Part shown: positions 10,636 to 54,896 of the stretch, in pieces
Numbering within the stretch: the stretch's first letter is position 1
Layout: the number at the start of each line of letters is the position of its first letter
NCBI GenBank assembly: GCA_963797235.1
Contig: CAWCOX010000009.1
Coordinates: 205,158 to 269,157 of the forward strand
Direction: 5' to 3'
DNA from: an uncultured delta proteobacterium
GTDB taxonomy: Bacteria > Desulfobacterota > Desulfobaccia > Desulfobaccales > 0-14-0-80-60-11
DNA length: 64,000 bases
Position numbers and translations under genes: made by a program
The notes under the pieces: generated by a model
Seen by the model: the letters and a program-made list of their open reading frames with translations, nothing else
The model's database searches: none
Told to the model about the DNA's origin: nothing

Positions 10636-10691
10636 CGGTGGGAAGGTTGCTATCCTTGATAAAGGCCAGATGGCTGTCATCCGGTGGGAAG
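10636..10691. promoter_or_regulatory. Two copies of CGGTGGGAAG, 46 bp apart, upstream of the sigma-54 promoter (candidate activator-binding sites)
   Basis: Exact 10-mers at 10636-10645 and 10682-10691, about 150-200 bp upstream of the -24/-12 element. Confidence 0.2.
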
Positions 10692-11200: not shown

Positions 11201-11403
11201 GCCGTTTTCCTCCTCTTAAGATTAACCGGGTGCTACCCAAGCGACCGCTTTTAGTGGTCCGGCCGTGAATCTTCACGGTCCCGCTTAGCTTAAAAGTAAG
11301 GCGCGAATTGATGATGTCAATAAAAGTGAACGGATTCGGAGGAAAACTCACGGGGGGATTGAAGCAGAGAAGTACGGATAGACGGCCATCTCAGGACGCC
11401 GAT

Positions 11404-11442
11404 GGGGGGCGGACCCGGAGGCCCGCCCCAGCGGGTTTTTTA
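11404..11442 (+). terminator. Orphan GC hairpin plus T-tract (GGGGCGG-N-CCGCCCC agcgggTTTTTT) with no annotated plus-strand gene upstream
   Basis: The hairpin and T6 tract were read directly. Orientation fits a plus-strand intrinsic terminator. It belongs to the GGGCGG hairpin family. Confidence 0.35.
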
Positions 11443-11522
11443 ATCAGCTGCGGCGCGCCGCGGGTCCTCAAAAGGGCAGAAGCGGCGGCTTTTTCAGAAT
11501 TCTCAGCTTTGCCGACAGATCA

Positions 11523-12114
11523 TTATTTAACGGCCTGGCGCTGGGTCTTCATGCGTTCCAACAGGAACTCGAAGCCCTTGGTCCGGATCGCCTGGGCGAA
11601 CTGGGTCCGATAATTCTGCAGGATGCTGACGCCGTCCACGTTGACGTCGTAAAGCAACCAGCCCCCGCCCGCCTGGTGCATGAGATAGGTGACCGGAATG
11701 GACTCATTGGGCCGGACAATGGTGGTGTCCACCCGGGCCTTGCTGCCTTCCAGCTTCTCCTGGTTGTAGGTAATGTTCTCTTTCTTGAGAAACTGGACGA
11801 CCATGCGGGTATAGGAATCCTGAAAAAGGTAGCTGAAGGTGGTGACGAATTCCTGGTTCAAATGGCCAGAGGCGGACCCCAGGGCATCTTTGGCCATGAA
11901 GGGAAAGTCAAAGCTCCTGGCGATGATCTGGTGGATTTGCCGCGGACCGCTGGGCTTCATGCGCCGCCCCCGCCAGGGCCGGGTCCGTCTGGATGGCCAT
12001 CACCTGGTCCAGTATGCCCTTCACAAACCCCTTGGGGCTCTCGGCCAGAGCCGGCACAACCGACCAGCACCAGACCATCAGGACGAGACTCGCTAGACAA
12101 CGTGATCTTTTCAT
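11523..12114 (-). pseudogene. MlaC/Ttg2D-like periplasmic lipid-binding protein, one frameshift (~11955)
   Basis: ORF 11908-12114 carries a signal peptide (MKRSRCLASLVLMVWCWSVVPALA). ORF 11523-11960 carries IARSFDFPFMAKDALG...WLLYDVNVDGVSILQNYRTQF, typical of the MlaC family. SD GAGGAAAAAAAACC precedes the ATG. Confidence 0.7.
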
Positions 12115-23883: not shown

Positions 23884-23899
23884 CTGAGTCTCCTGTTTC

Positions 23900-23940
23900 C
23901 ATTCGCCGAGGTGTAGCGCCGGCGCCCTCGCCGGCGAATG
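23900..23940. repeat. GC-rich palindromic element containing TGTAGCGCCGGCGCCCTCGCC
   Basis: The 21-mer at 23912-23932 recurs as an exact reverse complement at 36508-36528. Confidence 0.8.
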
Positions 23941-23978
23941 AACCGCCGGGGGCGGCGGTTCCACATTTTCTAAATCCC

Positions 23979-24653
23979 CTACGCCATTAATTCCCGCAGC
24001 CGCCGCACGTTGGCGGCGACGTCGCCGTTCCCGCCGTAGATGCCGGAGCCGGAGACCAGGACGTCGGCCCCGGCGGCCGCGATCTCGGCCACGGTTTGGG
24101 TGGACACCCCGCCGTCCACCTCGATAAGCACCGGCAATTTTTGCTGGTCGATCAACTGCCGCAACTGCCGCACTTTGGGAAGAACGCCCCGGATGAACTT
24201 CTGACCGGAGAAGCCGGGGTTCACCGTCATCAAGAGGACCATGTCCACTTCCGAGAGCACGTATTCCAGGTGGTCCAGGGGGGTGGCCGGATTCAGGGTC
24301 ACGGTGGCCCTGGCCCCCAGTTCCTTGATATTTTGGATCAGGCGCTCCAGGTGGACGGTGGCCTCCACGTGAATGCCCAGCCAGTCGGCGCCGGCGTCCA
24401 CGAAATCTTTGACGTAGCGCTCCGGGTTCTCAATCATCAGGTGGACGTCCAGGGGAAGTTTGGTGGCCTTCCGGATGGCCTCGGTCACCGCCGGTCCGAT
24501 GGTGATATTGGGGACGAAATGGCCGTCCATGACATCCACGTGAATCCAGTCCACCCCGGCCTGCTCGGCCAGGTGAACCTGCTCCGCCAGGCGGCCGAAA
24601 TCGGCAGAGAGGATGGAGGCAGAAAGTTTTTTCAGGTTTTTCATAATTTTCAT
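23979..24653 (-). CDS. rpe: Ribulose-phosphate 3-epimerase
   Basis: 224 aa. HVDVMDGHFVPN, the VNPGFSGQKF motif, and ..EVDGG. Confidence 0.9.
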   Translation of the reverse strand: MKIMKNLKKLSASILSADFGRLAEQVHLAEQAGVDWIHVDVMDGHFVPNITIGPAVTEAIRKATKLPLDVHLMIENPERYVKDFVDAGADWLGIHVEATVHLERLIQNIKELGARATVTLNPATPLDHLEYVLSEVDMVLLMTVNPGFSGQKFIRGVLPKVRQLRQLIDQQKLPVLIEVDGGVSTQTVAEIAAAGADVLVSGSGIYGGNGDVAANVRRLRELMA

Positions 24654-25052
24654 AATTTTCGTAAAAGGTCAGGTCTCCGGGGCTGGGGGATATGGAGAAG
24701 TTACCCCCAATGCCCGGCAAAAATCAAGGGGGAAAGTTAGTCCGGCTGAAGTTCGTGGGTGCCAAAATACCCCGACTAACGTTAAAAAACCGGATTTAAG
24801 ATAACCTTTAAAGGGCCCTTTGGAGCAATATTGTGCCGGCGTCCGAAAAATTACCGCAAGTTTTTCCGCATAGATATCTGATTTTGCTAACTTTGTATGG
24901 TCAATGGCACGCGGTTTGGCCGCACCGGCACCGCTAAAGTACCGCTGCTATGCCGCTTAGACGCCATTTGGTCCGGAGGTAGAGCGGTAAATTTTCCAGT
25001 GAAGCTACCCTGAGAGGAGCGAACTTTCGAGAAAATCATCGACAATTGACCC

Positions 25053-26093
25053 TTATTCAGTCGGATGAAATTCAGCCGCGCCATGGTTGGCCGGCTTGCC
25101 CCGCAGCAGGTCCCAGGCGGCTCTGCCGGCCTTATAGACGAAGATGGGGCCGCCCACGACCAGATACCAATAAAAAGTGAAGGCGCGCCAGACCAGCAGG
25201 GTAAAGGCCATGGCCTGGGCGTCCATGAAGTGCCTCATGGAGGCGGCATAGCCGGCCTCTTCGACGCCGCCGCCGCCGGGGAGGAAGGAAGCCTGGCCAA
25301 CCAGGTGCAGCAACGCCTGGCTTAAGAGCAGGTAGGCGGCGGGCACGCTTTGATGCACCATGTCGATCACCAGAAGCAGGAGAAGGTAGCGGGGCAGCCA
25401 GTAATTAAAGGTGATCAGGAAGAGAGCCAGCCGCTGAGGCCACGACATCTGGCGCAGGAGGCGGAGGGCCCGGAGGAAATCCACCGTGGCCCGGCCCAGC
25501 CGCCAACGGCGTTGGGCCAGCCAGGGGACCCTCACTAGTTGGCGGCCGATAAACCCGCGCATCTGGCGATGGTGGCGCACCAGGCTCCAAAAGGCATAGA
25601 TGCCAATCGCCTCCACCGACAGGCACAGACCCACCAGGCGCAGATTGTGGTAGGTCCAGCCACCCTGGAGGAGCTGGAGGAAGCCGGCGGCGGGCATGAT
25701 CATGGCGTAAAGGGCCAGGTCCGTCACCATGATGAGGCCCACCATGCCCGCGGCCCGGCCCAGGCGCAGCCCCAGGCGATTAAACAGGAAGGCATAGGTG
25801 GCGGCCATGCCCACTGCCCCAGGGGTGGTGACCCCGGCGAATTCGGCAGAGATGGTAATGAGGGCCGCGTCCCGGAAGCCCACCTCCCGGCCGGCGAAGC
25901 TCAGGAGAAATTGGGCCCTGAGGGCGTTAAAAGCCCAGCTGACCAGCTTGAGGAAGATGAGCAGGAGGATGGCCCCGATGGTAAGGCGGTGCAGCAGCCT
26001 GAACTGAGCGAGGCCGCCCAGGGCCAGGGGGGCGGCCAGGCTGAGACCGAGGCTGACCAAGAGCAAAAGAAGCCATGTTTTTCTGGTTGACAT
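25053..26093 (-). CDS. Polytopic membrane protein, lysyl-phosphatidylglycerol-synthase TM-region/flippase-like (UPF0104-like)
   Basis: 346 aa, about 8 TM, PGGGGVEEAGY motif near the C-terminus as in LPG_synthase_TM-family proteins. Confidence 0.55.
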   Translation of the reverse strand: MSTRKTWLLLLLVSLGLSLAAPLALGGLAQFRLLHRLTIGAILLLIFLKLVSWAFNALRAQFLLSFAGREVGFRDAALITISAEFAGVTTPGAVGMAATYAFLFNRLGLRLGRAAGMVGLIMVTDLALYAMIMPAAGFLQLLQGGWTYHNLRLVGLCLSVEAIGIYAFWSLVRHHRQMRGFIGRQLVRVPWLAQRRWRLGRATVDFLRALRLLRQMSWPQRLALFLITFNYWLPRYLLLLLVIDMVHQSVPAAYLLLSQALLHLVGQASFLPGGGGVEEAGYAASMRHFMDAQAMAFTLLVWRAFTFYWYLVVGGPIFVYKAGRAAWDLLRGKPANHGAAEFHPTE

Positions 26094-26120
26094 ATGGTTT
26101 TGGCGTTACCGTGAAAACTT

Positions 26121-26192
26121 CAAATCCCCCTAAATCCCCCTTTTTCAAAGGGGACTTAAAAACCCCGTTGGAAAAAAGGGCAGGGGGAATTG
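26121..26192. repeat. AAATCCCCCTAAATCCCCC/GGGG hairpin element
   Basis: caaatccccctaaatccccctttttcaaagggga...ccccgttggaaaaaagggcaggggg. Sibling at 40526-40616. Confidence 0.8.
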
Positions 26193-26366
26193 CCACCTCG
26201 GCGGGTGGCCAATATTGGCCAAGAACGTTAAGCTTGCCCAGGGCTAGAAATCATTGGCGCTCAGGCTAAGCCCCGGCTAGATTTAAGGGTTAACCTGTAG
26301 AACCGCCATCCGCCGCGGTTCAGGAGGCGGCGAGGGCTCCAGCCGACTGGTTGACCGGGGTTCTCC

Positions 26367-27785
26367 TCAGTCCTGGTCCCATTGGGCGTGGAAGGCGCCG
26401 GGGCCGTCCAGGCGTTCGTAGGTGTGGGCTCCGAAGTAATCCCGCTGCGCTTGAATCAGGTTGGCCGGCAACCGGGCGCTGCGGTAGGCGTCGAAATAGG
26501 CCAGGGTCATCATCAGCCCCGGGGCAGGCAGGCCCAATTCGGCGGCGAGGACCACCACGTCCCGGAGATCGCGCTGCCGCGCCTGGAACTCCCGGGCCAG
26601 CTTGGGGTCCAGGAGCAGGTTGTTCAGGTCGGGCCTGGCCCGGAAGGCCGCCCGGATTTCCTCCAGCAAGGCGGCCCGGATGATGCAGCCGCCGCGCCAG
26701 ATACGGGCCACCGTCTCCAGATCGAGGCCATAATCGTAAGTGGCGGAGGCCTTTTTGAGCAGGGCCAGGCCCTGGGCGTAAGTGGCGATCATGCCGGCGT
26801 AGAGGGCGTTTTGCAATTTTTCCAGCAAGCGGGCCCGATCGCCGCTGAAGGCAATGTCCGGGCCTTTCAAGACCTGGGCGGCGGCCTGGCGCTCGCCCTT
26901 GTAACCGGACAGGTCGCGCAGCACCACGGCGATGTCGATGGTGGGGGTGCCCACCTGTAGGTCCATGGCCTCCCAGGAGGTCCACATGCCGGTGCCTTTT
27001 TGCCTGGCTTCATCCCGGATCTGGTCGACGAGCGGCTGGCCGGTCTTATCGTCCTTCTTTAAGAAGATGCGGGCGGTGATCTCCACCAGGAAGGAGTTCA
27101 GCTCCGTGGCGTTCCAGGCGGCAAAAACGCCGTGCAGTTCTTCCGGAGTCAGGCCCAAACCGCGGTTCATCAGGTCGTAGGTCTCGGCGATGAGCTGGAT
27201 GAGGCCGTATTCGATGCCGTTATGGACCATCTTGACGTAGTGGCCGGCGGAGCCCGGTCCCAGGTAGGCGACGCAAGGATCGCCATCGACCTGGGCCGCG
27301 GCAGCCTCCAACACGGGAGCGACCCGATCGTAGGCCTCCCGGGCGCAACCGGGCATCAGGCTGGGACCGTAGCGGGCCCCGGCTTCGCCTCCGGAAACGC
27401 CCAGGCCCATGAACCAGATGCCTTTAGCCGCCAGGGCCCGGGCCCGGCGGCCGGTGTCGATGAAATGTGAATTGCCGCCGTCGATGAGCAGGTCGCCGTG
27501 GGCCAGGAGCGGGAAAAGTTCCCGGATGACGGTGTCCACCGCCTCTCCGGCTGCCACCATGATCAGAATGGCCCGAGGCCGGCGCAGGGACCGGGCGAAT
27601 TCTTTCAGCTCAGAGCCGGGGCGGATATCCCGAGGTCCCACCTCCTGGGCCATGAATTCCCGGGTCTTGGCGGCGGTGCGGTTGTACACGGCCACGGGGA
27701 ATCCATGGTCGGCAAAATTCAGGGCCAGGTTGCGACCCATGGTCCCCAGGCCGATGACCCCGATCTCACATCCCGGTTTGGGCAT
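26367..27785 (-). CDS. gnd: 6-phosphogluconate dehydrogenase (decarboxylating)
   Basis: 472 aa. N-terminal Rossmann IGVIGLGTMGRNLALN. Full-length conserved 6PGDH C-terminal domain. Confidence 0.9.
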   Translation of the reverse strand: MPKPGCEIGVIGLGTMGRNLALNFADHGFPVAVYNRTAAKTREFMAQEVGPRDIRPGSELKEFARSLRRPRAILIMVAAGEAVDTVIRELFPLLAHGDLLIDGGNSHFIDTGRRARALAAKGIWFMGLGVSGGEAGARYGPSLMPGCAREAYDRVAPVLEAAAAQVDGDPCVAYLGPGSAGHYVKMVHNGIEYGLIQLIAETYDLMNRGLGLTPEELHGVFAAWNATELNSFLVEITARIFLKKDDKTGQPLVDQIRDEARQKGTGMWTSWEAMDLQVGTPTIDIAVVLRDLSGYKGERQAAAQVLKGPDIAFSGDRARLLEKLQNALYAGMIATYAQGLALLKKASATYDYGLDLETVARIWRGGCIIRAALLEEIRAAFRARPDLNNLLLDPKLAREFQARQRDLRDVVVLAAELGLPAPGLMMTLAYFDAYRSARLPANLIQAQRDYFGAHTYERLDGPGAFHAQWDQD

Positions 27786-27795
27786 AAGAACATCT

Positions 27796-27836
27796 CCAGT
27801 GAGCGGTGAGCGGTGCAGTGAGCAGTAAAACCAAGG
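27796..27836. repeat. GTGAGCGGT/GTGAGCAGT array ending ..AGTAAAACCAAGG
   Basis: ccagtgagcggtgagcggtgcagtgagcagtaaaaccaagg. Related copies at 47503-47540 and 56083-56114. An inverted partner lies at 27971-28007. Confidence 0.75.
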
Positions 27837-27970
27837 CTGCCTGGCTCTCGGGCGCTCCGATCTATTTTCATAAAATAAGCAAGTCTGCCAATTTCAAAAG
27901 CGGCCAAGCCGCTCAACTAAACAAAGCGAAGCAGCCACCCCGGTCCTCTCAAGCCCGATGGAAAGCCGGC

Positions 27971-28007
27971 GCTACTGCTTACGGCTCGCGGCTTACTGCT
28001 TACTATT
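27971..28007. repeat. Inverted partner array (CTTACTGCT units), overlapping the tal stop codon
   Basis: gctactgcttacggctcgcggcttactgcttactatt is the approximate reverse complement of the 27796-27836 array. Confidence 0.65.
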
Positions 28008-29128
28008 TCAGGGCCTCCCGGCGCTTGCCCTCCAGGGTGCACATCAGGCTATCGTAGGGCTGATTGAATTTTTCCACCCCTTCGTCTTCCAGCCGCTGGG
28101 TGGCCTGGTTGAGGTCGAGGCCCAACTCCGGCAGACGCTGCAGGACCGCGGTGGCCTTCTCCAGGTCCGCGGCCAGGCGCGGGGCGGGGTTGCCGTGGTC
28201 CCGGTAGGCCTTCAGGGTCTCCACGGGCATGGTGTTGACGGTCTCCGGGCCGATGAGAGGCTCGACGTACTTGACGTCGGGGTAAGCCGGGTTTTTGGTG
28301 CTGGTGCTGGCCCAAAGCAGGCGCTGGGTCCGGGCGCCTTGGGCGGCCAGGGGCTTAAAAGTTTGGCTGCCAAAGATTTGCCGATAGATGGAATAGGCCA
28401 CCTTGGCGCTGGCGATGGCGGTCTCACCCGGGAGAGAGGCCGCGGCCGCGGCCAGAGGCCCGCCGGCCTGGGCCAGCTTCTCCAGTTGGGGGTCAAGCAG
28501 GACGTCGATGCGGCTCAGGAAGAAGCTGGCCACCGAGGCGACGTTCAGGTGCAGGCCCTGGGCGGCCCGCCCCTCCAGGCCGCGGAGGTAGGCCTCGACC
28601 ACCTCCCGGTAGCGGGGCAGGCCGAAGAGCAGGGTGACGTTGATGTTGAGCCCTTCGCTGATGAGCTGCTGGATGGCCGGCAGGCCCGCCTGGGTGGCCG
28701 GCACCTTGATGAAGACGTTGGGCCGGTCCAGTTTGGCCCACAGCCGCCGGGCCTCGGCGATGGTGCCGGGGGTGTCGTTGGGCCAGGTGGGGGTTGACCT
28801 CCAGGCTGACGAAGCCGTCAGCCCCTTGAAGCTGCTCAAACCGCGGCCGGAAGACGTCGGCGGCCCGCTGCACGTCCGCCACGGTCAGGGCTTCATAAAT
28901 CTCCTGGATGCTTTTACCCTGCCGGGCCAGGGAGCGGATTTCGTCGTCATAGTCCCGACTGCCGGCGATGGCCTTCTCGAAGATGGCGGGGTTGGAGGTC
29001 ATGCCGCGCAGGCCGTCTTCGTCGATGAGCCGCTGGAGTTCTCCGGAGTCGATCAGCTGCCGGCTGATATAGTCCAGCCAGATGCTTTGGCCGAGACTGG
29101 TCAGTTTGATCAGAGGATTTTCTTTCAT
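28003..29128 (-). pseudogene. tal: Transaldolase, one frameshift (~28785)
   Basis: ORF 28493-29128 gives MKENPLIKLTSLGQSIWLDY...TSNPAIFEKAI...SLEVNPHLA. ORF 28003-28839 continues ..NDTPGTIAEARRLW..NVFIKVPAT... Confidence 0.85.
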
Positions 29129-29156
29129 GGCGTTAATCCTATTCTGAAAAGTTGGG

Positions 29157-29197
29157 CCTCACGCAAAGGCGCAAAGGCGCAAAGCAAGACGCAAAAA
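29157..29197. repeat. ACGCAAAGG array element
   Basis: cctcacgcaaaggcgcaaaggcgcaaagcaagacgcaaaaa. Siblings at 37305-37348 and 40448-40490. Confidence 0.8.
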
Positions 29198-29257
29198 TAC
29201 AGCCTTATAAAGGCGGCCTATGGCCGCGGGCAGCGCGCCTGGATTGGCCGGGGAAAT

Positions 29258-29277
29258 GGCGGGCACGGAGGCCCGCC
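29258..29277. repeat. GGCGGGC/GCCCGCC hairpin 12 nt downstream of the rpiB stop
   Basis: ggcgggc-acggag-gcccgcc, a member of the GGGCGG hairpin family. Confidence 0.7.
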
Positions 29278-29289
29278 CCACCAACTGTC

Positions 29290-29736
29290 TTACTGCCGTT
29301 CCAGGGCGGCCACCTTGTCCAGGCGGCGCTGGAAACGCTCCGCCTTTTTATAGCGGGCCTTCAGAAAGGTCTGGATCAGGTCCCAGGCCAGGGCGTAGCA
29401 GGTGACCCGGCCGCCCAGGCACATGATGTTCATGTCGTCGTCCTCGACCCCCTGGTGGGCGGAGTAGGGGTCGGTGATGAGGGCGGCCCGGACGCCCCGG
29501 ATTTTGTTGGCGGCCACCGAGGCCCCCACGCCGCTGCCGCAGATGGCGATACCCCGGTCCACCTCACCTGCGGCCACGGCCCGGGCCAGGGGCACGACAA
29601 AATCGGGATAATCGTCCTGGGGGTGGTATTCCCGGGCGCCGTAGTCCACGAGCTCGTAGCCGGCCCCCCGGAGTTCCTCCAGCATCTTCTCCTTCAGCTC
29701 AAAGCCGCCGTGGTCGGCAGCCAGACCGACGCGCAT
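29290..29736 (-). CDS. rpiB: Ribose-5-phosphate isomerase B
   Basis: 148 aa. MRVGLAADHGGFELK..., ICGSGVGASVAANK. Confidence 0.9.
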   Translation of the reverse strand: MRVGLAADHGGFELKEKMLEELRGAGYELVDYGAREYHPQDDYPDFVVPLARAVAAGEVDRGIAICGSGVGASVAANKIRGVRAALITDPYSAHQGVEDDDMNIMCLGGRVTCYALAWDLIQTFLKARYKKAERFQRRLDKVAALERQ

Positions 29737-29772
29737 GTTTTTTCCTCCGAACTAGAGGCAGAGATCAATGTC

Positions 29773-29848
29773 TTCACCACAAAGACACAGAGGCACACAG
29801 AGGCAGATAAATCTTAATTCTCTGTGCTCTCTGTGCCTCTGTGGTGAA
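29773..29848. repeat. Palindromic CACAGAG-array element (variant of the CACCAAG family)
   Basis: ttcaccacaaagacacagaggcacacagaggcag - loop - ctctgtgctctctgtgcctctgtggtgaa. Confidence 0.85.
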
Positions 29849-29853
29849 TAGTT

Positions 29854-31723
29854 TCAACTTGCCGCCAGCTTGAACTCGTGCATCAGGTCCAGCACCTTCT
29901 CGATGATGCCGGTCCTTGGAGATACCCTCGAAATCCAGGAGTTCGGCGGGCTTGCCGGTCCTGGGCTTCAGGTGCACCGCCAGGGAATAGACCGGGGTCG
30001 GGCTTGCGGCCAGGGTGGTGCGCACCGCATCACCAAGGCCGCCTTCAGGATAGTGATCCTCCACGGTGATGATGGCCCGGGTGGCCGCGGCCGCCGCTTT
30101 CAGGGTCTGCTCATCCACCGGCTTGACGCTGTAGAGGTCGATGACCCGGATGGCAAAGCCTTTATCCTGCAAGTCGTCATGCGCCTTGAGGGCCTCGAAG
30201 AGCGTGATCCCGGCGCCGACGACCGTGACCACATCCTGCGGACTCTGACGCAGCACCTTACAGCCGCCGATGGGGAACTTTTCTTCCGGCCCGTAAAGGA
30301 TGGGGGTGGCCATGCGGGAGGTGCGCAGATAAGAGATGCCCACCTGGCGGGCCATGGCCTCCACCAGGCGTTCGGTGGAGATGGCGTCGCAGGGGTAGAG
30401 GACCACGCTATCCAGGATGGCCCGGAACATGGCCAGGTCCTCCAGGCCCATCTGGGAGGGGCCGTCCTCGCCGATGGAGACCCCGGCGTGGGAGCCGCAG
30501 AACTTGAGGTTGGGGTCGGAATACCGGCTCATGCGGATCTGGTCATAGGCCCGGCTGAAAAAGGCCGCAAAGGTGGAGGCGAAGGGGATCTGCCCCCGGG
30601 CCTGGAGGCCCAGGGCGGCGCCCACCATATTCTGTTCGGCGATGTACATCTCGAAAAAGCGGTCCGGATGAGCCTCCCGGAGGATTTCGGCGTAAGTGGA
30701 ATTGCTCACCTCGCCGTCTACGGCCACTATTTGGGGAAACTCCGGGTAGAGGCGCTTCAGGGCGTTGCCGTAGGCCTTGCGGGTGGCCACGGGCTTATCC
30801 GGCGGATAGGAGAGCGGCGAGGCCGGCTGAGACTGGGGCCTGGCCGGTCTCAGATCTTCCGGCGGCGCCAGGGCGCCCCGGACCGACTTATCCACCGGGC
30901 CCAGTTCGAGGAGGGCCTTGGTCAACTGGTCTTTATCCAGGGTCTTGCCGTGCCAGCCGTTTTGGTTCTCGATGAAGGAGACGCCTTTGCCCTTGATGGT
31001 CTTGGCGATGATCATGACGGGTTTGTCGGCCACCAGGGCGGCCCGGCGATAGGCCTCCAGGACCTCGGGTACGGAGTGGCCGTCACTGACCAGGATGGTC
31101 TCCCAACCGAAGGAGGCGATCCGGTCCTCATAGGCCATCAGGTCCCAACCGTACATGGTCTCGCCCCGCTGGCCCAGGCGGTTGACGTCGAGGATGCCCA
31201 CCAGGTTGTCCAGCTTATAGTGGGCCGCCAGCTGCAGGGCCTCCCATTGGGAGCCTTCGGCCATTTCGCTGTCGCCCAGGAGCACATAAGTCATATAGGG
31301 CAGCTTATCGAGATACTTGGCGTTTAAGGCCTGGCCCAGGCCGATGGAGAGGCCCTGGCCCAGGGAACCGGTGGCCGCCTCGCAGAAGCGGAAATTCACC
31401 GTTGGGTGCCCTTCCAGGGCGCTGCCGAACTGGCGGTAGGTCATCAGGTCCGCTTCGGTCAGCCCGCCCGCCGCGGCCCACAGGGTATAGAAGAGCGGCG
31501 AGGCGTGGCCTTTGGAGAAGATCAGGCGGTCGTTATTGGGGTGCCTGGGGTCGTTCAGGTCGTAGCGGAAGATGCCGCCGAAGAAGAGGGCGGCCATCAA
31601 CTCCACTCCCGAAAGCGACGAAGTGGGATGGCCAGAGCCGGCCTGGGTGGTCATATTGAGGATGTAGTAGCGCATCCAGACGGCGATCCTGGTCAATCTT
31701 TCCAACTGCTCGGTAACTGACAT
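29854..31723 (-). pseudogene. tkt: Transketolase, frameshift ~20 codons before the natural stop (~29905)
   Basis: GSGHPTSSLS and LLGDSEMAEGSQWE TPP motifs. After ..LLDFEGISKD a 1-nt shift restores GIIEKVLDLMHEFKLAAS*. Without the shift, the ORF reads into the repeat (..FTTEAQRAQR..). Confidence 0.85.
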
Positions 31724-31847
31724 AAACCGGGTCCTCCTGGACGATGGCTGGCCTGCCGGAATTTTTTATTTTAGCTGTTGCGTCTGCCTAACATCTAAAA
31801 CTAAGAACTAAAGTCAGGTTTGCAAGAGACCGGTTGCGACATTGCAA

Positions 31848-31868
31848 TGGGCGGTTCGAGAACCGCCC
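31848..31868. repeat. GGGCGGTTC/GAACCGCCC hairpin abutting the stop of the cyt-b5/DUF2231 gene
   Basis: gggcggttc-gag-gaaccgccc. Confidence 0.7.
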
Positions 31869-32624
31869 CTACTTCTCTTCGTGCAGGGGAAAGGTCAGGG
31901 TGGCGCCGTACCAGCCGATGAGGCTCACCAGGGGCAACAGGGAGCAGATCAGGACCAGGTAGACCTTGCCGGTCCAGTGATCCAGGGCCGCGAGGATTCC
32001 CGGGTCCAGCCAGCGCCAGATAAAGGTCCCGGTTCCCACGGCCAGCAAGATGGGGGTCAGGGTCAGCTTGATGATGATCGGCCGTAAGGGGCGCCACTCG
32101 TAGTTAAGCCACCAGGTGAGCAGTCCGGTGACCAGGGCCACCGGGGTGAACAGCACCCCGCCCCCCAGGCAGTGCCAGGCCGTGGTCTCGAAGGAAGTAA
32201 CGCCGGTGAGCAGATAGAGGAGCGTAAAGATCGGAGTGGAAATAAAGAAAACGAGCGGGAAGTGCACCACCATGGGATGGGGGTGGCGCCGGAACAGGGG
32301 AAAACGCCTGAGAAAGCGCGCCCAAAATCCCGGCCGCGGCGGCCCGGAGGCCCTGGTCTCCGGGGCGGCGACCTCGGGGCTCACGCTCAACACCCCCACC
32401 TGGGGGTAGCGCGCCAAGACCTCTTCGCCGTGGGGGGCCTCGGGGAACTCGGCGCTGAGGTCGGACCCGGCGAAGTGGCCGGCCATGTGTTCGCCCCCGG
32501 CCCAGAGGCCGCTGGCGCTGACGTCATAGACCCGGCCCCGGTAGGCGAGGTAGACGGGCTTGCCATCGGCGCCGTTGTAATCGGCCAGTTCTTCAGGGGT
32601 AAATTTTTTCAGGTCCTCAGGCAA
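31869..32624 (-). CDS. Cytochrome b5-like heme/steroid-binding domain fused to a DUF2231-type 4-TM membrane domain
   Basis: N-terminal FTPEELADYNGADGKPVYLAYRGRVYDVSASGLW..H..GSDL (cyt-b5/MAPR-like). C-terminal RHPHPMVVHFPLVFF...TTAWHCLGGGV is paralogous to 34982-35492. Confidence 0.7.
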   Translation of the reverse strand: MPEDLKKFTPEELADYNGADGKPVYLAYRGRVYDVSASGLWAGGEHMAGHFAGSDLSAEFPEAPHGEEVLARYPQVGVLSVSPEVAAPETRASGPPRPGFWARFLRRFPLFRRHPHPMVVHFPLVFFISTPIFTLLYLLTGVTSFETTAWHCLGGGVLFTPVALVTGLLTWWLNYEWRPLRPIIIKLTLTPILLAVGTGTFIWRWLDPGILAALDHWTGKVYLVLICSLLPLVSLIGWYGATLTFPLHEEK

Positions 32625-32666
32625 ATCTTTTCCCTTTAAGATGATCTATCCGCCACTCAGCTTGCG

Positions 32667-34953
32667 TCATCGGGCCGGCGCCATCCGCTTCCGTACCAAA
32701 GACCGATAGGTCAGCAAGGCGGCCATCACCATGGGCACTACCCCCAGAAAGATGAAGACCAGGTCCCCGGGCATGCGGCACCATTCGATGAAGCGCACAA
32801 AATCCCGGGTGAGGTATTCCAGCCCCCGGGCGTGCCAGTAGCCATGGGTGACGACGTCGAAAAACTGCAGCACCCCCCCGGGAAAGAGGTTGCCCAGGAC
32901 CATCAGGGCCAGGCCGAGATTCAGGCCCCAGAAGGAGACCCGGATGTATTTCTCCGGCCGGGTCCACTCCTCGTCAGAGAGGACCTGGCGGAAGGCCATC
33001 ACCGTCAGGGCCATGGCCTCCATGCCGAAGGCCCCCATCAGGGCGGCGTGGCCATGGTTGGGGGTGAGGATGGTGCCCACTTCGAAGTAGCTGATGATGG
33101 GCAGATTGATGAGGAAACCGAAGATGCCGGCGCCCACGAAATTCCAGAAGCCCACCGCCATGAGGAAGTAAAAGGTCCATTTATGCGGGATGGCAAGGTT
33201 TTCCCCGCAGGCCTCGCACTCCCTCCGGGTTAATTTGACAAAGTCCCAGGCGTCCAGGGTAAGGAGCGTCAGGGGCACCACCTCCATGGCCGAAAACATG
33301 GCGGACAGGCCCATGTTGACCTGGGACTGTCCGGTCCAGTACCAGTGGTGGCCGGTGCCCACGATGCCGCTGCCCAGGAAGAGGATAGCGTCCAGGTAAA
33401 CCACCCGGGCCGCGGTCTGGCGGGACACCACTCCCAGTTGGAAGAAGGTGACGGCCACCATCACCGTCACCAGGAGCTCAAAGAAGCCTTCCACCCAAAG
33501 GTGGATGATCCAGAAGCGCCAGTTGTCAACGACGGTATAGTTGGTGGTGCTGCCGAAGAAAAAGGCCGGCAAATAAAAGAGTGGGATGGCCAGGGCCGCC
33601 AGGAGAAACAGCCAAGAGATCTCCCGGCGCTCCGGATCCTTCAGGGCCGGGGCCAGGGCCCGGAACAGCAGCACCACCCAAATAATCAGTCCCACCGCCA
33701 GCAAGATCTGCCAGCCCCGGCCCAGGTCCAGATACTCCCAGCCCTGGTGGCCGAACCAGAACCACAGGTGACCCAGGAGCTGGTTGATCCCCAGGAGCTC
33801 TCCCAGGAGGCTGCCCGCCACCACCACGACCAAGGCCCAAAACAGGAAATGGACCCCGGCACCTGGCCCCTGGGCTCCGTCTCCCCCAGGGACCCGGCCA
33901 GAAGCAGCCCGCCGCCCACGTAAGCGGTGGCGATCCAGAAGATGGCCAGTTGCAGGTGCCAGGTGCGCAAGATATTGCTGGGGAAAAACTCGTAGAGGTT
34001 GAGGCCGTAAAAACTTCCCGGCTCCACCCGGTTGTGGGCCGTGGCCGCGCCCACCATCACCTGGACCAAAAACAGCAGGGTAACCACCACAAAGAACTTG
34101 ATGGTAGCCCGCTGGCTGGGGCTGGCCACCCCGGGCAGCATCCGGGGATGGACCGTCGCCGTGGTCCCCTTCCAGCCCAGGTAATCGAATTTTCCAAAGG
34201 CAAAGAGAATGGTCGCGGTCCCGGCCAGCAGGGTGATGAGGCTCAGGGCGCTCCACAGATAGGCCGCGGCCGGCGGGGTGTTGCCCGCCAGGGGATCGAA
34301 GGGGAAATTGTTGGTATAGGAATAGGAGAGGCCCGGACGCCGGGCCGCCGAGGCCCAGGCGGTCCAGGCGAAAAAGGCCGTCAGTTGCCGCAGCTCTTGA
34401 GGGTCGACGATATACTTGGTTTTCAAGCCGCCATTTTTGTCGGGATGGACAAAATATTCGGTCCACTGGCCGATCTGCCGCCGATAGGAGACGATTTCCG
34501 CCTCAGTGAATCCCAGGGCGCCGGTCCGGGAGTCGTAGCGGTTCTCTTGCAACAGTCGTGGCACCGCGGCCCGGACCGCGTCCCGCTGGAGGTTCGTCAG
34601 GGTCGCCGGGGCTCGGCCATAGAGCCTGCGGGACTCCAGGTCGGAGGCTGCCAGGGCCAGGTCGTGCAGGTAGGCGGCGGAGAAGTCCGGTCCCAGGTAG
34701 GCCCCGTGGCCCCAAATGCTGCCGTTCTCCATGAGCCCGTACCGCAAAAAGACCTGCTGCCCGGCCCTAATGTCAGCGCCGGTAAAAATGGTCTCTCCCG
34801 CGGCGCTGACCACCTGTTCCGGAATGGGCGGGGCCTCGCGGTAGGCCCGGACCGCGATCCAGCTGAGGATGGCTAAGCCGATTAAGACGCTGATCAGGAC
34901 CCCCAGGCGCCATCTGGGGGAGAGTTCGAAACTGGTCTGTTCTTGATCCGGCA
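32667..34953 (-). pseudogene. norZ: Quinol-dependent nitric-oxide reductase (qNOR, heme-copper oxidase family), one frameshift (~33880)
   Basis: A long N-terminal periplasmic extension, then HLWVEG, GTGHHWYW and NHGHAALMG metal and heme ligand motifs. ORFs 33686-34972 and 32667-34466 join into ~760 aa. The start is ATG 34953 or TTG 34972. Confidence 0.8.
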
Positions 34954-34981
34954 TCAGGGTGTCCCGGTCCAAAGAGATAAT

Positions 34982-35492
34982 TCAGTCCTGCTCTAAAGGA
35001 AAGGTCAGCATGCCGCCGAAATAGCTGATCACCGTCACCAACGGGGTCACCGCCAGGACCAGCAGGAGATAAACGAAATTCAGGCCATGCAGGTCCTCGG
35101 AGCACCGTCGGATTGAGCAGCCGCCAGACAAAGGCGGCGGCGACCATGCTCCACAACAGAAACGACAGCCGCTTTTCCAGGGTCAGGGTGGGGTCGGGTC
35201 GAGGATAGTTCAACCTCTGGGTGAAGACGCCGGTGGCGATGGCCACCGGGGTGGTCAGCACGCCAGCCCCCAGGCAGTGAAAGGCCGTGGTCTCAAAGGA
35301 CCCCGCTCCGGTCAGCAGATAAAGCACGCTGAAAAAACTGGCGGCCAGCATGAAGACGATGGGAAAATGGGACAAGGCCGGATGGGGGTGGCGTTGCAGA
35401 TAGGGGTAGCGGGCCACCAATCCGGCCAACCAGCGGGGCAGTGGCCGGTCGCCGTCCGGTTCTGCCTGTCCCGGCAGGGGGCTGGTTGCCAT
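34982..35492 (-). pseudogene. DUF2231-type membrane protein, one frameshift (~35090)
   Basis: RHPHPALSHFPIVFM...TTAFHCLGAGV. After the shift the C-terminus reads DLHGLNFVYLLLVLAVTPLVTVISYFGGMLTFPLEQD*, parallel to the 31869 paralog. ATG 35492 overlaps the ubiA-like stop (TGATG). Confidence 0.65.
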
Positions 35493-36472
35493 CACCACCA
35501 CACCGGCAGCACCGCCCTGGCCCAAAGGTTCACCAGGATCACGGCCAGCACCGCCAGAGGATAACAGCTGGCCCGGTTGAACAGGGCCGCGGCGTGATCA
35601 TGGTTCCGGCAAAGCCGCCAGGCGGGCAGCAGCAACAGGTAAGCCCCCAACCCCAGGATCAGCAGCTGCTGGGAGAGGGGGAAGGGGATCGGGGCCAGGC
35701 GCAGGATGGCCAGGCTGAGGACGAGGCTGCCGGCCAAAGCAGCCAGGGCCAGGGCCCCGGCCCGCTTCAGGCCCAAGACCACCGGAATGGTCTTGGCGTT
35801 GAGGTGGCGGTCCGGTTCGACGTCGTGCCAGTCGGCCGGGATGTTTTGGCCGCCCACTTCCCAGAGAAAGAGCCAGAGAAAGAGAACCGCCAGGAAGACC
35901 GGCGAGGGCCCGGGGTCTACGGCAAAGACCGCGGCCGCGGCGCCCAGGCTCTTCACCACTCCGGCCACCAGCAGGCGCAGAGGGCTGACCTTGAGGAGCA
36001 GGCAATAGACGGCCTCCAGCCCGCAGCCCAACAGAAAGATCAGGGCGCAAACCGGGTTGAGGGTGTAGGCGCCCAGGAAGGCCACCAAGGCCCAGGCGCC
36101 GGTCCAGGCCAGGCCGGCGCGGCAGCTCATCCGGCCAGCGGCCAGGGGATGGCGCACGAAGACGGCGTCCAGGTAAGGGGCGGCCTGGGGGCCACCCGGC
36201 AGGCGGAGTTTTTCCCGGTCCACCCGGCAGTCGACCACGTCGTTCAGGGCGTAGACCGCGGTATAGCCGGCAAAGACGGTAAGGAGACCCAGGGCGATGA
36301 CTCCCGGCGGCGGGAAATGCCCCAGCCAGAGCAAGGCCGCCAGGGCCGGGGCGGCCAGGTCCAGCAGACCGTGGGGGGTGCGGGACAGGGCCAGGAAGAG
36401 CTTGAGCCGGGAGAGCCCCAGGTCCAGAGGCCTTGCGGCCATTTCAGCCTTTAATAAAGTTTGATCGCGCAT
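35492..36472 (-). CDS. UbiA-superfamily aromatic/polyprenyl prenyltransferase
   Basis: 326 aa, about 8-9 TM. Asp-rich motifs NDVVDCRVD and DWHDVEPD. Confidence 0.8.
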   Translation of the reverse strand: MRDQTLLKAEMAARPLDLGLSRLKLFLALSRTPHGLLDLAAPALAALLWLGHFPPPGVIALGLLTVFAGYTAVYALNDVVDCRVDREKLRLPGGPQAAPYLDAVFVRHPLAAGRMSCRAGLAWTGAWALVAFLGAYTLNPVCALIFLLGCGLEAVYCLLLKVSPLRLLVAGVVKSLGAAAAVFAVDPGPSPVFLAVLFLWLFLWEVGGQNIPADWHDVEPDRHLNAKTIPVVLGLKRAGALALAALAGSLVLSLAILRLAPIPFPLSQQLLILGLGAYLLLLPAWRLCRNHDHAAALFNRASCYPLAVLAVILVNLWARAVLPVWW

Positions 36473-36500
36473 GGCTCCGGCTCTTCGATCTGATTAGTTC

Positions 36501-36555
36501 CTACGCTGGCGAGGGCGCCGGCGCTACATTTGCCTATAAAAGCCTGCGGCTACCA
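36501..36555. repeat. Two juxtaposed repeat half-elements (GGCGAGGGCGCCGGCGCTACA and AAGCCTGCGGCTAC)
   Basis: 36508-36528 is the reverse complement of 23912-23932. 36538-36555 matches elements at 46251-46262 and 58266-58278. Confidence 0.75.
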
Positions 36556-36685
36556 AATCCTTCTAATGCTCACTTAAGATAAGGCTGGGGGCGGGGCTGT
36601 CAAGCGTCCCGGCGCCGCCTGATCGCGGCCGGCTCCCCTTGATACCTCCCTTGGGAGTGCTGATATATATGGCCAATAACTGCAG

Positions 36686-37353
36686 AGGGAAAGCCATGCG
36701 TCCCAACTATGCCTGGTGGACCGGATTATGGGTCATTGCCGTCTCACTCATCCTGGCGGCGCATTATTTTCCCCGCTTCCCCGGAGATGTGGCGGTGGCC
36801 AGGTGGGTCCAAGCCCTGGTCCCCGGCGACCTGCGTTGGGCCCAAGTGCGTCTCGCGGGTGGTCGATTTTCCCTGGATCCTGCTGAGCACGGGGCTAATT
36901 TTGGCGCTGGCCTGGGCCCTGGCCGGCTGGCGCGGTGCGGTGCTCTCCATCGTTTGCCTGGCGGGGATGTTGGCCCTGGGAATCTGGTTAAGCCCGGTGG
37001 TGGCCCGGCCGCGGCCTTCCCCGGCACTGGTGCGGGTCTGGCGGCCGCTTTCGGGTTATAGCTTTCCTTCCATTTCTGCCTTGGGCTATGCCGCCTCTTT
37101 CGGCTTTCTGGCAATTCTGGCCGCGCTCAAGAGTTCCGGTAAGCTGCGCCTCGCCTTGATGATGGGCTGCGGCGTCCTGCTCGTCCTGTGCTGGGCAGCC
37201 CGGGTCGCCCTGGGGGCGCACTGGCCGAGCGACGTGCTCATCTCTTATTTTTTGGGATTACTCTGGGCGGCGGGGCTCATTCGGTTTTTCCTCCCGAAAA
37301 GATTGGCCTCACGCCAAGACGCAAAGGCGCAGAGCCAAGGCGCAAACCTGTAG
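36686..37353 (+). pseudogene. PAP2-family membrane phosphatase, one frameshift (~36845)
   Basis: ATG 36686 (AGAGGGA SD). Motifs YSFPS and RVALGAHWPSDV. The C-terminal tail ..RLASRQDAKAQSQGANL is encoded by a repeat element. Confidence 0.7.
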
Positions 37354-37588: not shown

Positions 37589-38014
37589 ATGCAGCCGGTA
37601 AGCCTCAACCCTTTGAGCCCCTGGGCTCCCGGTTTGCTCAGCCTCGTCCTGTATACCGGCGTCGTTCTGGGCCTGCTGGGGCTGCTGTTGGTCCTGACCC
37701 GCTGGCTGGGCGAACAGAAGCCCGACTTCGAAAAAGCCAGGCCCTACGAATGCGGGGTGATCCCCACCGGCGGGGCCCGGTTCCGTTATCCGGTGCCCTT
37801 CTACCTGGTGGCGGTCTTCTTTCTCATCTTCGACGTGGAGAGCGCCCTGATCTTTTCCTGGGCGGTGGCCATCGAGGCACTCAGCTGGCGCGGCTGGCTG
37901 CAAATCTCCTTTTTCATCATCGTCCTGCTCGTCAGTCTCGTTTACCTGTGGAAAAAAGGAGGGCTGGATTGGCGGCCCCAGTTACTACGAAAGGCGTCAC
38001 CACCCCGGAGTTGA
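37589..38014 (+). CDS. nuoA: NADH-quinone oxidoreductase subunit A
   Basis: 3 TM, the PYECG motif, and FDVESALIF. Confidence 0.9.
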
Positions 38015-40429
38015 TCCGCGGTCTGGAATACCTGAACCGGCCTCGTTTTGAGGGCGTCGGCCCCACGAGCCGGGGAATCGAGCGCGGCCTGGACCTGGTG
38101 GTCAACTGGTGCCGGGCCTACAGCTTCTGGCCGCTCTTCTTCGGGCTGTCCTGCTGTTTCATCGAAGAGATCACCGCCTGGACGCCGCGCTTCGACATCT
38201 CCCGATTCGGGGCCGAGGTCATCAGGGGCTCGCCCCGGCAGGCGGACCTGCTGATCGTTTCCGGCACGGTCTTCAAGAAGATCGCCCCGGTGGTGCTCAG
38301 GCTCTATGAGCAGATGACCGAACCGAAATGGGTCATCTCCATGGGCTCCTGCTCCAACTGCGGCGGCATGTACGACTGCTACAGCGTGGTTCAGGGCGTC
38401 GACCAGATCCTGCCGGTGGATATCTACATCCCCGGCTGCCCGCCCCGGCCCGAGGCGGTGATGCAGTCCATCGTGCTGCTCCAGGAGAAGGTCATGTCCG
38501 AGCGGCCGCTGCGCAAGATCCTGCACCGGCCCGGCGGCACTCAGGGCACCCAGACCCCCATCCTGGTGGACGGCCTGACCAAGACCCGGGACCCCCGCGG
38601 CCCCGGCTATTACGGCACCCCGCCCCGGGGCAGCGAAGAGACGCCGCCGATGTTTTGGGACGCCCGGTCCGACCTGATGTGGACCCCGCCGCCTAACTTC
38701 CTCGAATTGAGCGAGACGGACCGATCCCTGGCCCAGTCCCTGACGGCAAAATTCGGGGACGCGGTGGCCCAGGCGGAAAATACCTCGGACATGCTCACCT
38801 TTCAGGTGGCGCCGGCGCGGGTCGAAGAAGTGCTGCGCTTTTTAAAGACCGAGTCCGAGCCCAAATTCTCGCGCCTGGACGACCTGACCGCGGTGGATGA
38901 AACGGCCCGCCGGGAGCGGGAGCAGTACCCGGACTACACCCTGAACTACCAGCTCCTCTCCTTTGAGTCCGCCTCGCGGGTGCGCCTCAAGGTGCCGCTG
39001 CATGGGCCCGGAGCCGGCGATCCCCACCATCACCGGCATCTGGCCCTCGGCCGACTGGTACGAGCGGGAAGCCTTCGACATGTTCGGCATCCTTTTTACG
39101 GGGCATCCCCGGCTGTGGCGTCTCCTCATGCCGCACGACTGGGAGGGGCATCCGCTCAGAAAGAGCTACCCGGACCGGGCCACCGATATGCCGCCCTACA
39201 CCCATTACGACGCCCAGAAGCGCCAGCCGCGGGATGCCGGGGAGTACATGGCCGGGCGCCTGGCCGAAGACCAGTACGTTCTGAATATCGGCCCGCACCA
39301 CACCAGCACCCACGGCCTGATTCGGTTTATCCTGGCCCTCCGGGGCGAAGAGATCACGGCGATCGACACGGACATCGGCTACCACCACCGGGCAGCGGAG
39401 AAGATCGGCGAGCGCCAGTCCTGGCACCAGTACATCCCCTACACCGACCGGGTGGACTATCTCACCGGGGTGGCCAATAACCTCACTTACCTGCTGGCGG
39501 TGGAGCAGTTGGCCGGCATCCAGGTGCCGGACCGGGCCCAATTCATCCGGGTGATGCTCACCGAGTTTTTCAGGTTAAGCAACCACCTGGTCTGGTTTTC
39601 CACCTATACCCAGGACACCGGGGCCATGACCCCCACTTTCTACTGTTTTGCCGAGCGGGAAAAGATCCTGGACATCGTGGAGCTGATCACCGGGGGGCGG
39701 CTGCACCCCGCCTGGTTCCGCCTGGGCGGCGTGGCCATGGACCTGCCCGACGGCTGGAAGGAACTGGTGGACGATTTCGTCAAGGTCTTCCCCCGGCGCA
39801 TCAAGGAGTTCGAGGCCCTGATCACCAAGAACCCCATCTTCGAGGCCCGGACCCGGGAGGTGGGTTATCTCTCCCGGCAGGACGCCATGGAGTGGGGGGT
39901 CACCGGGGCCAACCTCAGGGCCAGCGGCCTGGAGTGGGACCTCAGGAAGAAGATGCCGTATTCGGGCTATGAGGCCTTCGACTTCGACATTCCCTACGCC
40001 ACGGGCGGCGATTGCTACGCCCGTTACCTGGTGCGGGTGGAGGAGATGCGCCAGAGCGTCCGCATCATCGAACAGGCGGCCAACCAGATGCCGCCGGGGC
40101 GCTGGCTCAGCGACGACTACCGTTACATCATTCCGCCCAAGGCAGAAACCCTGACGGACATCGAGACCCTGATTCACCATTTCATCAACGTCACCCGGGG
40201 GGCCAAGATTCCCCGGGGCGAGGCCTACGTGGCCACCGAGCACCCCCGGGGCGAGCAGGGAGTTTACGCGGCCAGCGACGGCCTGCACATGGCTTACCGG
40301 CTGCGTTTCCGGTCGCCCGGCTTTGCTCACGTCCAGGCCCTGCCCCTGATGGCGGTGGGGCACCTGATTTCGGATTTGATCGCCATCATCGGCTCCATTG
40401 ATTTCGTGTTGCCGGATATTGACCGGTAG
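37969..40429 (+). pseudogene. nuoBCD: Fused NADH-quinone oxidoreductase subunits B-C-D, one frameshift (~39005)
   Basis: NuoB: SCCFIEE...[11 protein letters not shown]...PGCPPRP. About 60 aa of Pro/Gly linker. NuoC: ..[17 protein letters not shown]. NuoD: [12 protein letters not shown]...[10 protein letters not shown]. There is no stop between the modules. TTG 37969 has AGGAGG 6 nt upstream; the alternative start is TTG 38011. Confidence 0.85.
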
Positions 40430-54841: not shown

Positions 54842-54896
54842 ATGGAGAACAGCCGCCCTCGACTGTTCTTTGCAGGCGAGGGCGCCTGCTCTCCAT
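54842..54896. repeat. 55-bp TIR/hairpin element, copy A (inverted orientation)
   Basis: atggagaacagccgccctcgactgttctttgcaggcgagggcgcctgctctccat is the reverse complement of copies B and C, with a few substitutions. Confidence 0.9.

Follow-up and report, generated by a model that had tools for sequence, protein, structure and literature searches.

Heme o synthase genes classically lie within oxidase operons, and CtaB and CtaA are encoded by adjacent or fused genes. Characterised quinol-dependent nitric oxide (NO) reductases (qNOR, also called NorZ) use unmodified heme b. To our knowledge, the late steps of the futalosine pathway to menaquinone (MK) are poorly assigned. Desulfobacterota make MK mostly through this pathway (PMC13386864), and atypical UbiA-like genes in other organisms have been proposed to encode the missing MK prenyltransferases (PMC3551663). 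Here, we analysed a stretch of 64,000 nucleotides (hereafter, the window; contig CAWCOX010000009.1, positions 205,158 to 269,157) from an uncultured delta proteobacterium of the Desulfobaccales, in which a gene for a UbiA-superfamily prenyltransferase, two genes for DUF2231 membrane proteins, and a qNOR gene lie side by side. One of the DUF2231 proteins carries an N-terminal cytochrome b5-type domain of the cytb5M class (cytb5M::DUF2231; hereafter, the fusion). We are highly confident in the anatomy of this operon and in the conclusion that the UbiA and fusion genes form its conserved core, with qNOR as a passenger. The explanation that we consider best, to which we give about an even chance, is that the UbiA protein and the fusion constitute a prenylquinone-linked redox module and that qNOR is a facultative cassette. 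The features of the locus are as follows.

35492..36472 (-), gene for a UbiA-superfamily prenyltransferase, 326 aa (Pfam PF01040)
34982..35492 (-), gene for a small DUF2231 membrane protein, ~169 aa after frameshift repair (Pfam PF09990)
32667..34954 (-), qNOR/NorZ gene, ~760 aa after frameshift repair, ATG at 34954 and stop at 32667 (Pfam)
31869..32624 (-), cytb5M::DUF2231 fusion gene, 251 aa, TTG start at 32624 (Pfam)
36576..36603 (-), candidate sigma-70-like promoter TTGACA-16-TATCTT, ~100 nt 5' of the UbiA start (consensus match only)
36508..36524 (-), 17-nt GC-rich element GCGCCGGCGCCCTCGCC in the UbiA leader (sequence match)
31846..31866 (-), GC-rich hairpin directly 3' of the fusion stop codon, before tkt (folding energy)

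The four genes are probably one tight, co-transcribed unit. The UbiA stop codon (35494-35492) overlaps the ATG of the small DUF2231 gene (35492-35490) as TGATG, 27 nt separate the stop of the latter at 34982 from the qNOR ATG at 34954, and 42 nt separate the qNOR stop at 32667 from the fusion TTG at 32624. The candidate promoter is the sole promoter-like match in 31600-36800, with a chance expectation of 0.6, and the hairpin (-17.4 kcal/mol, z = -1.7, without a T-run) may mark the operon end. Matches to intrinsic terminators within the gene cluster were at or below the chance level. A single transcription unit is likely because of the small gaps, the promoter match, the 3' hairpin, and the absence of an internal terminator above chance. 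The small DUF2231 protein contains the motifs QRHPHPALSHFP and FETTAFHCLGAG, and the fusion contains their counterparts, RRHPHPMVVHFP and FETTAWHCLGGG. A preliminary description of this DNA had reported four co-directional genes with tiny gaps, the TGATG overlap, and motifs shared by the two DUF2231 domains; the gene arrangement was verified on the minus strand by Pfam and the sequence itself, and both motifs are present in both proteins.

The same description treated UbiA as an add-on to the operon, and the comparison with relatives showed that the partner conserved beside the fusion is UbiA. When GTDB species were scanned with one genome each, 242 relatives of the fusion were obtained, and the neighbourhoods of the best 80 loci were read by tblastn and open reading frame (ORF) clustering. 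Sufficient sequence 5' of the fusion gene was available in 75 loci, and in 64 of them a UbiA homolog lies directly upstream in the same orientation; the median gap is ~35 nt where nothing intervenes. The pair was found in lineages labelled Desulfobaccales, Syntrophobacterales, Syntrophales, Desulfobacterales, Desulfomonilia, and Syntrophorhabdus. The genes around the pair vary by lineage (nuo, a molybdopterin/NrfD complex, fumarase, PrkA, and an ABC-class ATPase), and since the surroundings differ in this way, the adjacency appears to be selected rather than inherited as synteny. Quinone-dependent complexes flank the pair, namely nuo in Desulfobaccales and molybdopterin/NrfD-type complexes elsewhere. 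The loci without an upstream UbiA gene showed no alternative conserved partner; their neighbours encode a MORN-repeat protein, NAPRTase, a CHASE2 cyclase, and PAP2. The small paralog, which has no heme domain, is present in 26 of the 80 loci, and 24 of these copies adjoin the fusion gene in Desulfobaccales-like loci. It is probably a partner subunit that was added in Desulfobaccales.

The neighbourhoods also bear on what UbiA may act on. A convergent gene for the quinone C-methyltransferase UbiE/MenG (TIGR01934, 237 bits; cutoff 158) lies at most 3.5 kb from the pair in 19 of the 46 evaluable loci outside Desulfobaccales, often together with a second S-adenosylmethionine-dependent methyltransferase gene. 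This convergent gene is the best contextual clue to the UbiA substrate.

The N-terminal 80 residues of the fusion are predicted to be a bis-His cytb5M heme domain. This region is 50% identical to the cytb5M domains of PDB entries 6NZX and 6VZ6, both crystal structures that contain heme (E 2e-25 for 6NZX; Foldseek TM-score 0.87-0.89 for 6NZX/6VZ6), scores 39.6 bits against Pfam PF00173, and contains two axial histidines, H46 and H65, that are invariant among 31 sequences. The cytochrome-b5-like soluble heme domain of the preliminary description can therefore be specified as cytb5M type with both axial ligands conserved. Against Pfam PF09990 (DUF2231; cutoff 26.4 bits), the small protein scores 40.7 bits and the fusion 51.5 bits. 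In the AlphaFold2 model, the fusion has transmembrane (TM) helices at residues 117-140, 143-175, 181-206, and 217-244, with a per-residue confidence (pLDDT) above 90. The fusion has no signal peptide, and it carries six Arg ahead of TM1 and three Arg or Lys in the TM2-TM3 loop; because of the missing signal peptide and the Arg-rich linker before TM1, the heme domain is expected to be cytoplasmic.

The relatives of the fusion number 1198 at the 90% cluster level, and a profile of both paralogs reached 1125 clusters of the DUF2231 family at 50% identity. The only near-invariant residues among 86 DUF2231 representatives are H116, H121, F122, P123, K186, and two Gly; the five named residues sit at the cytoplasmic membrane face. 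Only two histidines are conserved family-wide, and both lie where TM1 begins on the cytoplasmic side. In the HCLG motif, the His gives way to Tyr in many small paralogs and to Ile or Arg in other relatives. The earlier suggestion that the motif histidines are candidate heme ligands is not supported for the His of HCLG.

The domain architectures of the relatives provided insight into the possible role of DUF2231. A Flavin_Reduct-b5-DUF2231 architecture was seen in seven contig observations across three cluster members, all with the identical length of 462 aa. Other relatives possess b5-DUF2231 followed by a fifth TM helix and a periplasmic cytochrome c, and a receiver domain stands in front in REC-b5-DUF2231 (cluster representatives P0438, P0449, and P0499, outside the window). 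In P0430, b5-DUF2231 and UbiA form a single polypeptide of 572 aa with the same UbiA subfamily motifs. These fusions suggest an electron flow in which a cytoplasmic reductant feeds the b5 heme and the heme in turn feeds DUF2231, and, with P0430 among them, they also suggest a direct functional tie of b5-DUF2231 to the prenyltransferase. They are consistent with an electron-transfer membrane domain, the role that had been proposed for DUF2231 beforehand. The receiver-domain fusions suggest electron transfer controlled by phosphorylation, and they echo the co-location of cytb5MY (cytb5M-type) genes with two-component systems in bacteria of the candidate phyla radiation (CPR; bioRxiv 10.1101/2021.11.17.468889).

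The UbiA protein matches Pfam PF01040 with 86.8 bits (cutoff 34.2). Its Asp-rich motifs, NDVVDCRVD and DWHDVEPD, are intact, and N77, D78, D85, D214, D217, and D221 are invariant in the 29 subfamily members. On sequence grounds, the protein is a member of a distinct UbiA subfamily. None of the NCBIfam equivalog thresholds for MenA, three MqnP models, UbiA, heme o synthase, chlorophyll synthase, and digeranylgeranylglyceryl phosphate (DGGGP) synthase was reached by this subfamily. The window protein scored 57 bits against ubiA_other (cutoff 181), 23 bits against MqnP_Cj_Hp (cutoff 375), and 29 bits against ubiA_proteo (cutoff 275), and it gave no match to the heme o synthase model TIGR01473 at E<0.01. 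Weak matches to TIGR01473 were obtained with 17 of the 29 members (best E 6e-12) and weak matches to MenA-type models with three; the subfamily scores higher on generic UbiA-like and archaeal models than on the heme o synthase model. The nearest PDB entries are 4TQ3 and 6M31 (AfUbiA and MjDGGGPS; E ~5e-5). Since no equivalog threshold was reached and the solved relatives are distant, the substrate cannot be read from the sequence, and the assignment of this UbiA to a known pathway was rejected because the NCBIfam and PDB profile searches gave no equivalog.

The qNOR is predicted to be an ordinary quinol-oxidising NO reductase in an unusual operon position. It matches Pfam PF22085 (NorB_cytochrome_c-like, 188 bits) and PF00115 (COX1), its repaired length agrees with the ~750-800 aa of single-chain qNORs, and the intact qNOR of L001, a 96%-identical contig, aligns over its full length with PDB 3AYF (residues 20-747, E 1e-172). 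The window translation contains the motifs WHLQLAIFW, HLWVEG, GHHWYW, and NHGHAALMG, with the ligands of heme b, heme b3, and FeB (His residues and the Glu of HLWVEG), and the N-terminal NorC-like domain has no Cys and hence no CXXCH. The dedicated link between DUF2231 and qNOR that had been proposed for this locus was not borne out by the comparison. qNOR is present in only 6 of the 80 fusion loci, all of them in Desulfobaccales and always between the small DUF2231 gene and the fusion gene, so that DUF2231 is linked with NO reductase genes in one order only. Six qNOR orthologs outside the module (69-77% identity) had no UbiA or DUF2231 gene within 4-5 kb in any of the six cases. This identity range resembles that of the in-module qNORs in more distant Desulfobaccales. 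L011, which has no qNOR, shares 89-93% identity with the window in its UbiA, small DUF2231, and fusion proteins. Neighbour-joining trees were built for the fusion and for UbiA, and every qNOR-positive locus that they contain has a qNOR-negative sister, as listed below.

window and L010 (qNOR-positive) versus L011 (qNOR-negative)
L018 (qNOR-positive) versus L013 (qNOR-negative)
L024 (qNOR-positive) versus L025 (qNOR-negative)
L032 (qNOR-positive) versus L037 (qNOR-negative)

The four sister pairs indicate at least four events of qNOR gain or loss at one fixed slot. Within Desulfobaccales, qNOR behaves as a facultative presence/absence cassette, and it would not depend on the module.

The 17-nt element GCGCCGGCGCCCTCGCC has three matches in the window against 0.11 expected, all intergenic, and is also found upstream of UbiA in the close relatives of the window. 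Two further copies occupy empty qNOR slots.

23916-23932 (+), window
36508-36524 (-), window, the copy in the UbiA leader
54875-54891 (-), window, 2 mismatches
L011 9961-9977, in the empty qNOR slot, inverted orientation
L013 9960-9976, in the empty qNOR slot, inverted orientation

Possible explanations are a repetitive extragenic palindromic (REP)-like element, a site for a regulator, and a scar left by cassette exchange.

Two of the four operon genes are interrupted in the window sequence, which the preliminary description overlooked. In the alignment with L001, which served as the reference for indel calls, the small DUF2231 gene is frameshifted by one extra G at ~35098, and the qNOR gene is split into two ORFs by one missing A at ~33862. 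Both genes are intact in L001 and in the independent, Illumina-assembled L010 (169 aa and ~760 aa, respectively). Within 17 kb, the comparison with L001 revealed five more isolated 1-nt indels, and the full list is as follows.

28777, tal
29911, tkt
33862, qNOR
35098, small DUF2231 gene
36847, PAP2 gene
38650, nuoB
39000, nuoCD

Housekeeping genes are likewise fragmented in L006, a sister assembly of the same ENA series. Since housekeeping genes are also affected and the relatives are intact, the two operon frameshifts are most likely assembly or sequencing errors rather than signs of operon decay. The window probably comes from an error-prone, long-read assembly, and ORF-based readings of it must therefore allow for frameshifts. 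If, on the other hand, the operon were decaying and the two frameshifts were real inactivating mutations, the interruption of two of its four genes would be explained directly. We consider this very improbable, because the same type of 1-nt indel breaks tkt, tal, nuoB, nuoCD, and PAP2 within the same 17 kb, the flanks of each frameshift still translate to the conserved protein, the genes are intact in relatives at 92-96% identity, and L006 shows the same fragmentation of housekeeping genes.

In the prenylquinone-linked redox module proposed here, UbiA would prenylate an aromatic head group, and the product would be a prenylated aromatic compound, most likely a menaquinone-type quinone. The b5-DUF2231 protein would act as a homo-oligomer or, in Desulfobaccales, as a hetero-oligomer with the small paralog. 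Electrons would flow from a cytoplasmic reductant through the b5 heme to the DUF2231 domain, a putative four-helix bundle whose conserved residues, two His and one Lys, lie at the membrane face on the cytoplasmic side. At this face, the protein may supply or remove electrons, either keeping the head group reduced for prenylation or redox-tailoring or reducing the product. The co-transcribed qNOR would share its supply of quinone or electrons with the module. Our confidence in the quinone-specific chemistry, taken by itself, falls somewhat short of even. The proposal in its full form is held tentatively, as possible rather than probable: that, in anaerobic Thermodesulfobacteriota, the UbiA enzyme and the fusion are physically coupled and make or redox-tailor a prenylated cofactor, be it a variant quinone or a modified heme; that DUF2231 is a novel type of membrane domain that binds a cofactor and transfers electrons; and that the output feeds the embedded qNOR in some Desulfobaccales.

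Several observations weigh against this proposal. The UbiA protein fits MenA, MqnP, or UbiA no better than archaeal lipid prenyltransferases or chlorophyll synthase. The UbiE/MenG gene is convergent and not operonic, is found in none of the Desulfobaccales, and accompanies the pair in 41% of the other evaluable loci. The TM domain of the fusion gave no significant structural match in the PDB by Foldseek, its weak neighbours including CcmC and CcmF at non-significant E values (0.05-1.1). The UbiA fusion P0430 is a singleton from a 3.8-kb contig of a metagenome-assembled genome. Lastly, the qNOR slot is identical in divergent lineages, which could reflect a real functional tie.

Such a tie was the core of the earlier proposal, in which the two DUF2231 proteins serve as a dedicated electron-input or accessory module of qNOR, with a cytoplasmic donor feeding the NO reductase through the b5 heme and membrane cofactors and quinol being bypassed or supplemented. 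The precise position of qNOR between the two DUF2231 genes, in a slot kept in divergent Desulfobaccales, would be accounted for, and the fusions in relatives fit b5-DUF2231 as a cytoplasm-to-membrane electron conduit. However, 74 of the 80 fusion loci, including L011, have no qNOR, none of the six sampled outside orthologs has a DUF2231 gene nearby, and outside Desulfobaccales there is a single DUF2231 gene, which is paired with UbiA. In addition, the qNOR of this locus can be aligned along its entire length with quinol-dependent NO reductases of known structure. We therefore judge a qNOR accessory module to be quite improbable and much less likely than the redox module. Two other explanations are a heme-tailoring pair and a loosely coupled oxidoreductase. 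In the former, which would resemble CtaB/CtaA, UbiA prenylates heme, the b5-DUF2231 bundle binds or oxidises the modified heme, and qNOR is one client. The textbook adjacency of CtaB and CtaA and their oxidase-operon setting speak for such a pair, as do the weak TIGR01473 matches of 17 of the 29 subfamily members, the conserved His in the four-TM bundle of DUF2231, and the presence of the heme-handling CcmC and CcmF among the weak, non-significant Foldseek neighbours. It is nevertheless improbable: the window UbiA itself has no TIGR01473 match at E<0.01, its subfamily scores higher on generic UbiA-like and archaeal models, most loci have no nearby heme-copper oxidase and many have a quinone methyltransferase, and the heme b of characterised qNORs is unmodified.

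In the latter explanation, b5-DUF2231 would be a self-sufficient oxidoreductase comparable to MsrQ or ferric reductases, taking electrons from a donor in the cytoplasm and delivering them to quinone or to the other side of the membrane, and UbiA would be the menaquinone prenyltransferase of the lineage, co-regulated with b5-DUF2231 and sharing no chemistry with it. The flavin-reductase and periplasmic cytochrome c fusions fit such a conduit, and the late futalosine-pathway steps are, as far as we know, poorly assigned. The use of this pathway in Desulfobacterota (PMC13386864) and the atypical UbiA-like genes proposed as MK prenyltransferases elsewhere (PMC3551663) are also in its favour. Yet the tiny-gap adjacency persists across orders despite the shuffled surroundings, the TGATG overlap and the fused polypeptide speak for a tighter coupling than co-regulation, and the UbiA subfamily scores far below all three NCBIfam MqnP models; we regard this explanation as unlikely. 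The prenylquinone-linked redox module thus remains our preferred reading of the pair.

Other features lie around the operon or elsewhere in the window. Directly downstream, a pentose-/sugar-phosphate cluster comprises tkt, rpiB, tal, 6PGD, rpe, and PFK (23475-31723 (-); L001 8905-16756); in relatives, it also includes G6PD and pgl, and the synteny is kept across Desulfobaccales. If the b5 chain were fed by NADPH, this NADPH-generating neighbourhood might not be coincidental. A divergent nuo operon is located at 37589-40429 (+) in the window and at 3293-5647 in L002. A fused NuoB-C-D of 784-819 aa is encoded in most relatives and NuoB plus NuoCD in L001; the nuo genes of the window are broken by indels. 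In the window (36709-37353 (+)) and in close relatives, UbiA has a divergently oriented neighbour that encodes a PAP2-family phosphatase, and another PAP2 gene is found two genes upstream of the fusion gene in the locus of the Olavius Delta-4 symbiont (L069 7666-8850). The protein could be a polyprenyl-diphosphate phosphatase, which would fit the prenyl-lipid theme.

In three Desulfobacteraceae loci (L058 1960-3249; also L061 and L077), the third gene upstream of UbiA has the same orientation and belongs to the U32 peptidase family. Its best match is the prephenate-dependent tRNA hydroxylase TrhP, with UbiU second. These genes had been considered as a hint of anaerobic quinone hydroxylation and were dropped because of the TrhP match and their restriction to three loci. 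Elsewhere in the window, the only Rfam match is a c-di-GMP-I-GGC riboswitch aptamer at 2183-2265 (-) (RF03167, 71.6 bits; gathering score 59). The GC content of positions 1-12000 is 51-55%, compared to 60-66% in the remainder, and this part could be a foreign or otherwise distinct segment.

Full-text searches of the literature for DUF2231, PF09990, and COG4244 returned no functional paper, and searches combining cytochrome b5 with prenyltransferase or UbiA, menaquinone, and sulfate reducers found the gene pair in no title or abstract. The present analysis provides a DUF2231 subclade with a fixed partner, a Rosetta-stone fusion, and redox fusions, which together make a testable case that a prenyltransferase works with a membrane redox partner fed from the cytoplasm. 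Should the module act on quinones, it would bear on menaquinone biosynthesis in sulfate reducers and syntrophs, and also on the prokaryotic use of cytb5M, the proposed ancestor of eukaryotic MAPR/PGRMC. For NO biology, the outcome is mostly negative, an ordinary qNOR in an unusual operon position.

The components of the locus can each be set beside a described system. The qNOR resembles that of Geobacillus stearothermophilus (PDB 3AYF) in its full-length alignment, COX1 core, ligand motifs, and NorC-like domain without heme c, and the PDB search also matched further solved NO reductase chains. Unlike the characterised and sampled orthologs, which have no DUF2231 or UbiA neighbour, it is embedded between two DUF2231 genes. 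The heme domain of the fusion corresponds to the cytb5M structures from Hadesarchaea (6NZX) and Methanococcoides burtonii (6VZ6), whose axial His42 and His61 are equivalent to H46 and H65. What was expressed and crystallised there were soluble domains of ~78 aa, whereas the domain in the window is fused to a four-TM DUF2231 domain; neither DUF2231 nor UbiA appears as a term in the text of the paper that defined cytb5M. The Flavin_Reduct-b5-DUF2231 relatives share the order of flavin reductase, heme domain, and membrane domain with MsrQ/ferric-reductase-type conduits and with b5-fused or b5-reductase-fed oxidoreductases, but DUF2231 belongs to another fold family, and its TM domain has no significant PDB match.

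The pairing itself recalls two established arrangements. As in CtaB/CtaA, a UbiA-superfamily enzyme has as its partner, and at times as its fusion partner, a membrane redox protein with a His-bearing helical bundle, beside an enzyme of the heme-copper oxidase family. In contrast to that system, the window UbiA is below the heme o synthase threshold, DUF2231 is not of the COX15/CtaA family, and most loci have no oxidase. The late steps of menaquinone synthesis (MenA/MqnP and UbiE/MenG) are similar in that a UbiA-family enzyme is encoded near UbiE/MenG in the 19 evaluable loci described above; they differ in that the window UbiA fails all MenA, MqnP, and UbiA equivalog thresholds, and we know of no MK pathway with a b5-type membrane hemoprotein. 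The components of the module thus belong to known superfamilies, and among them the pair would represent a prenyltransferase with a dedicated redox partner.

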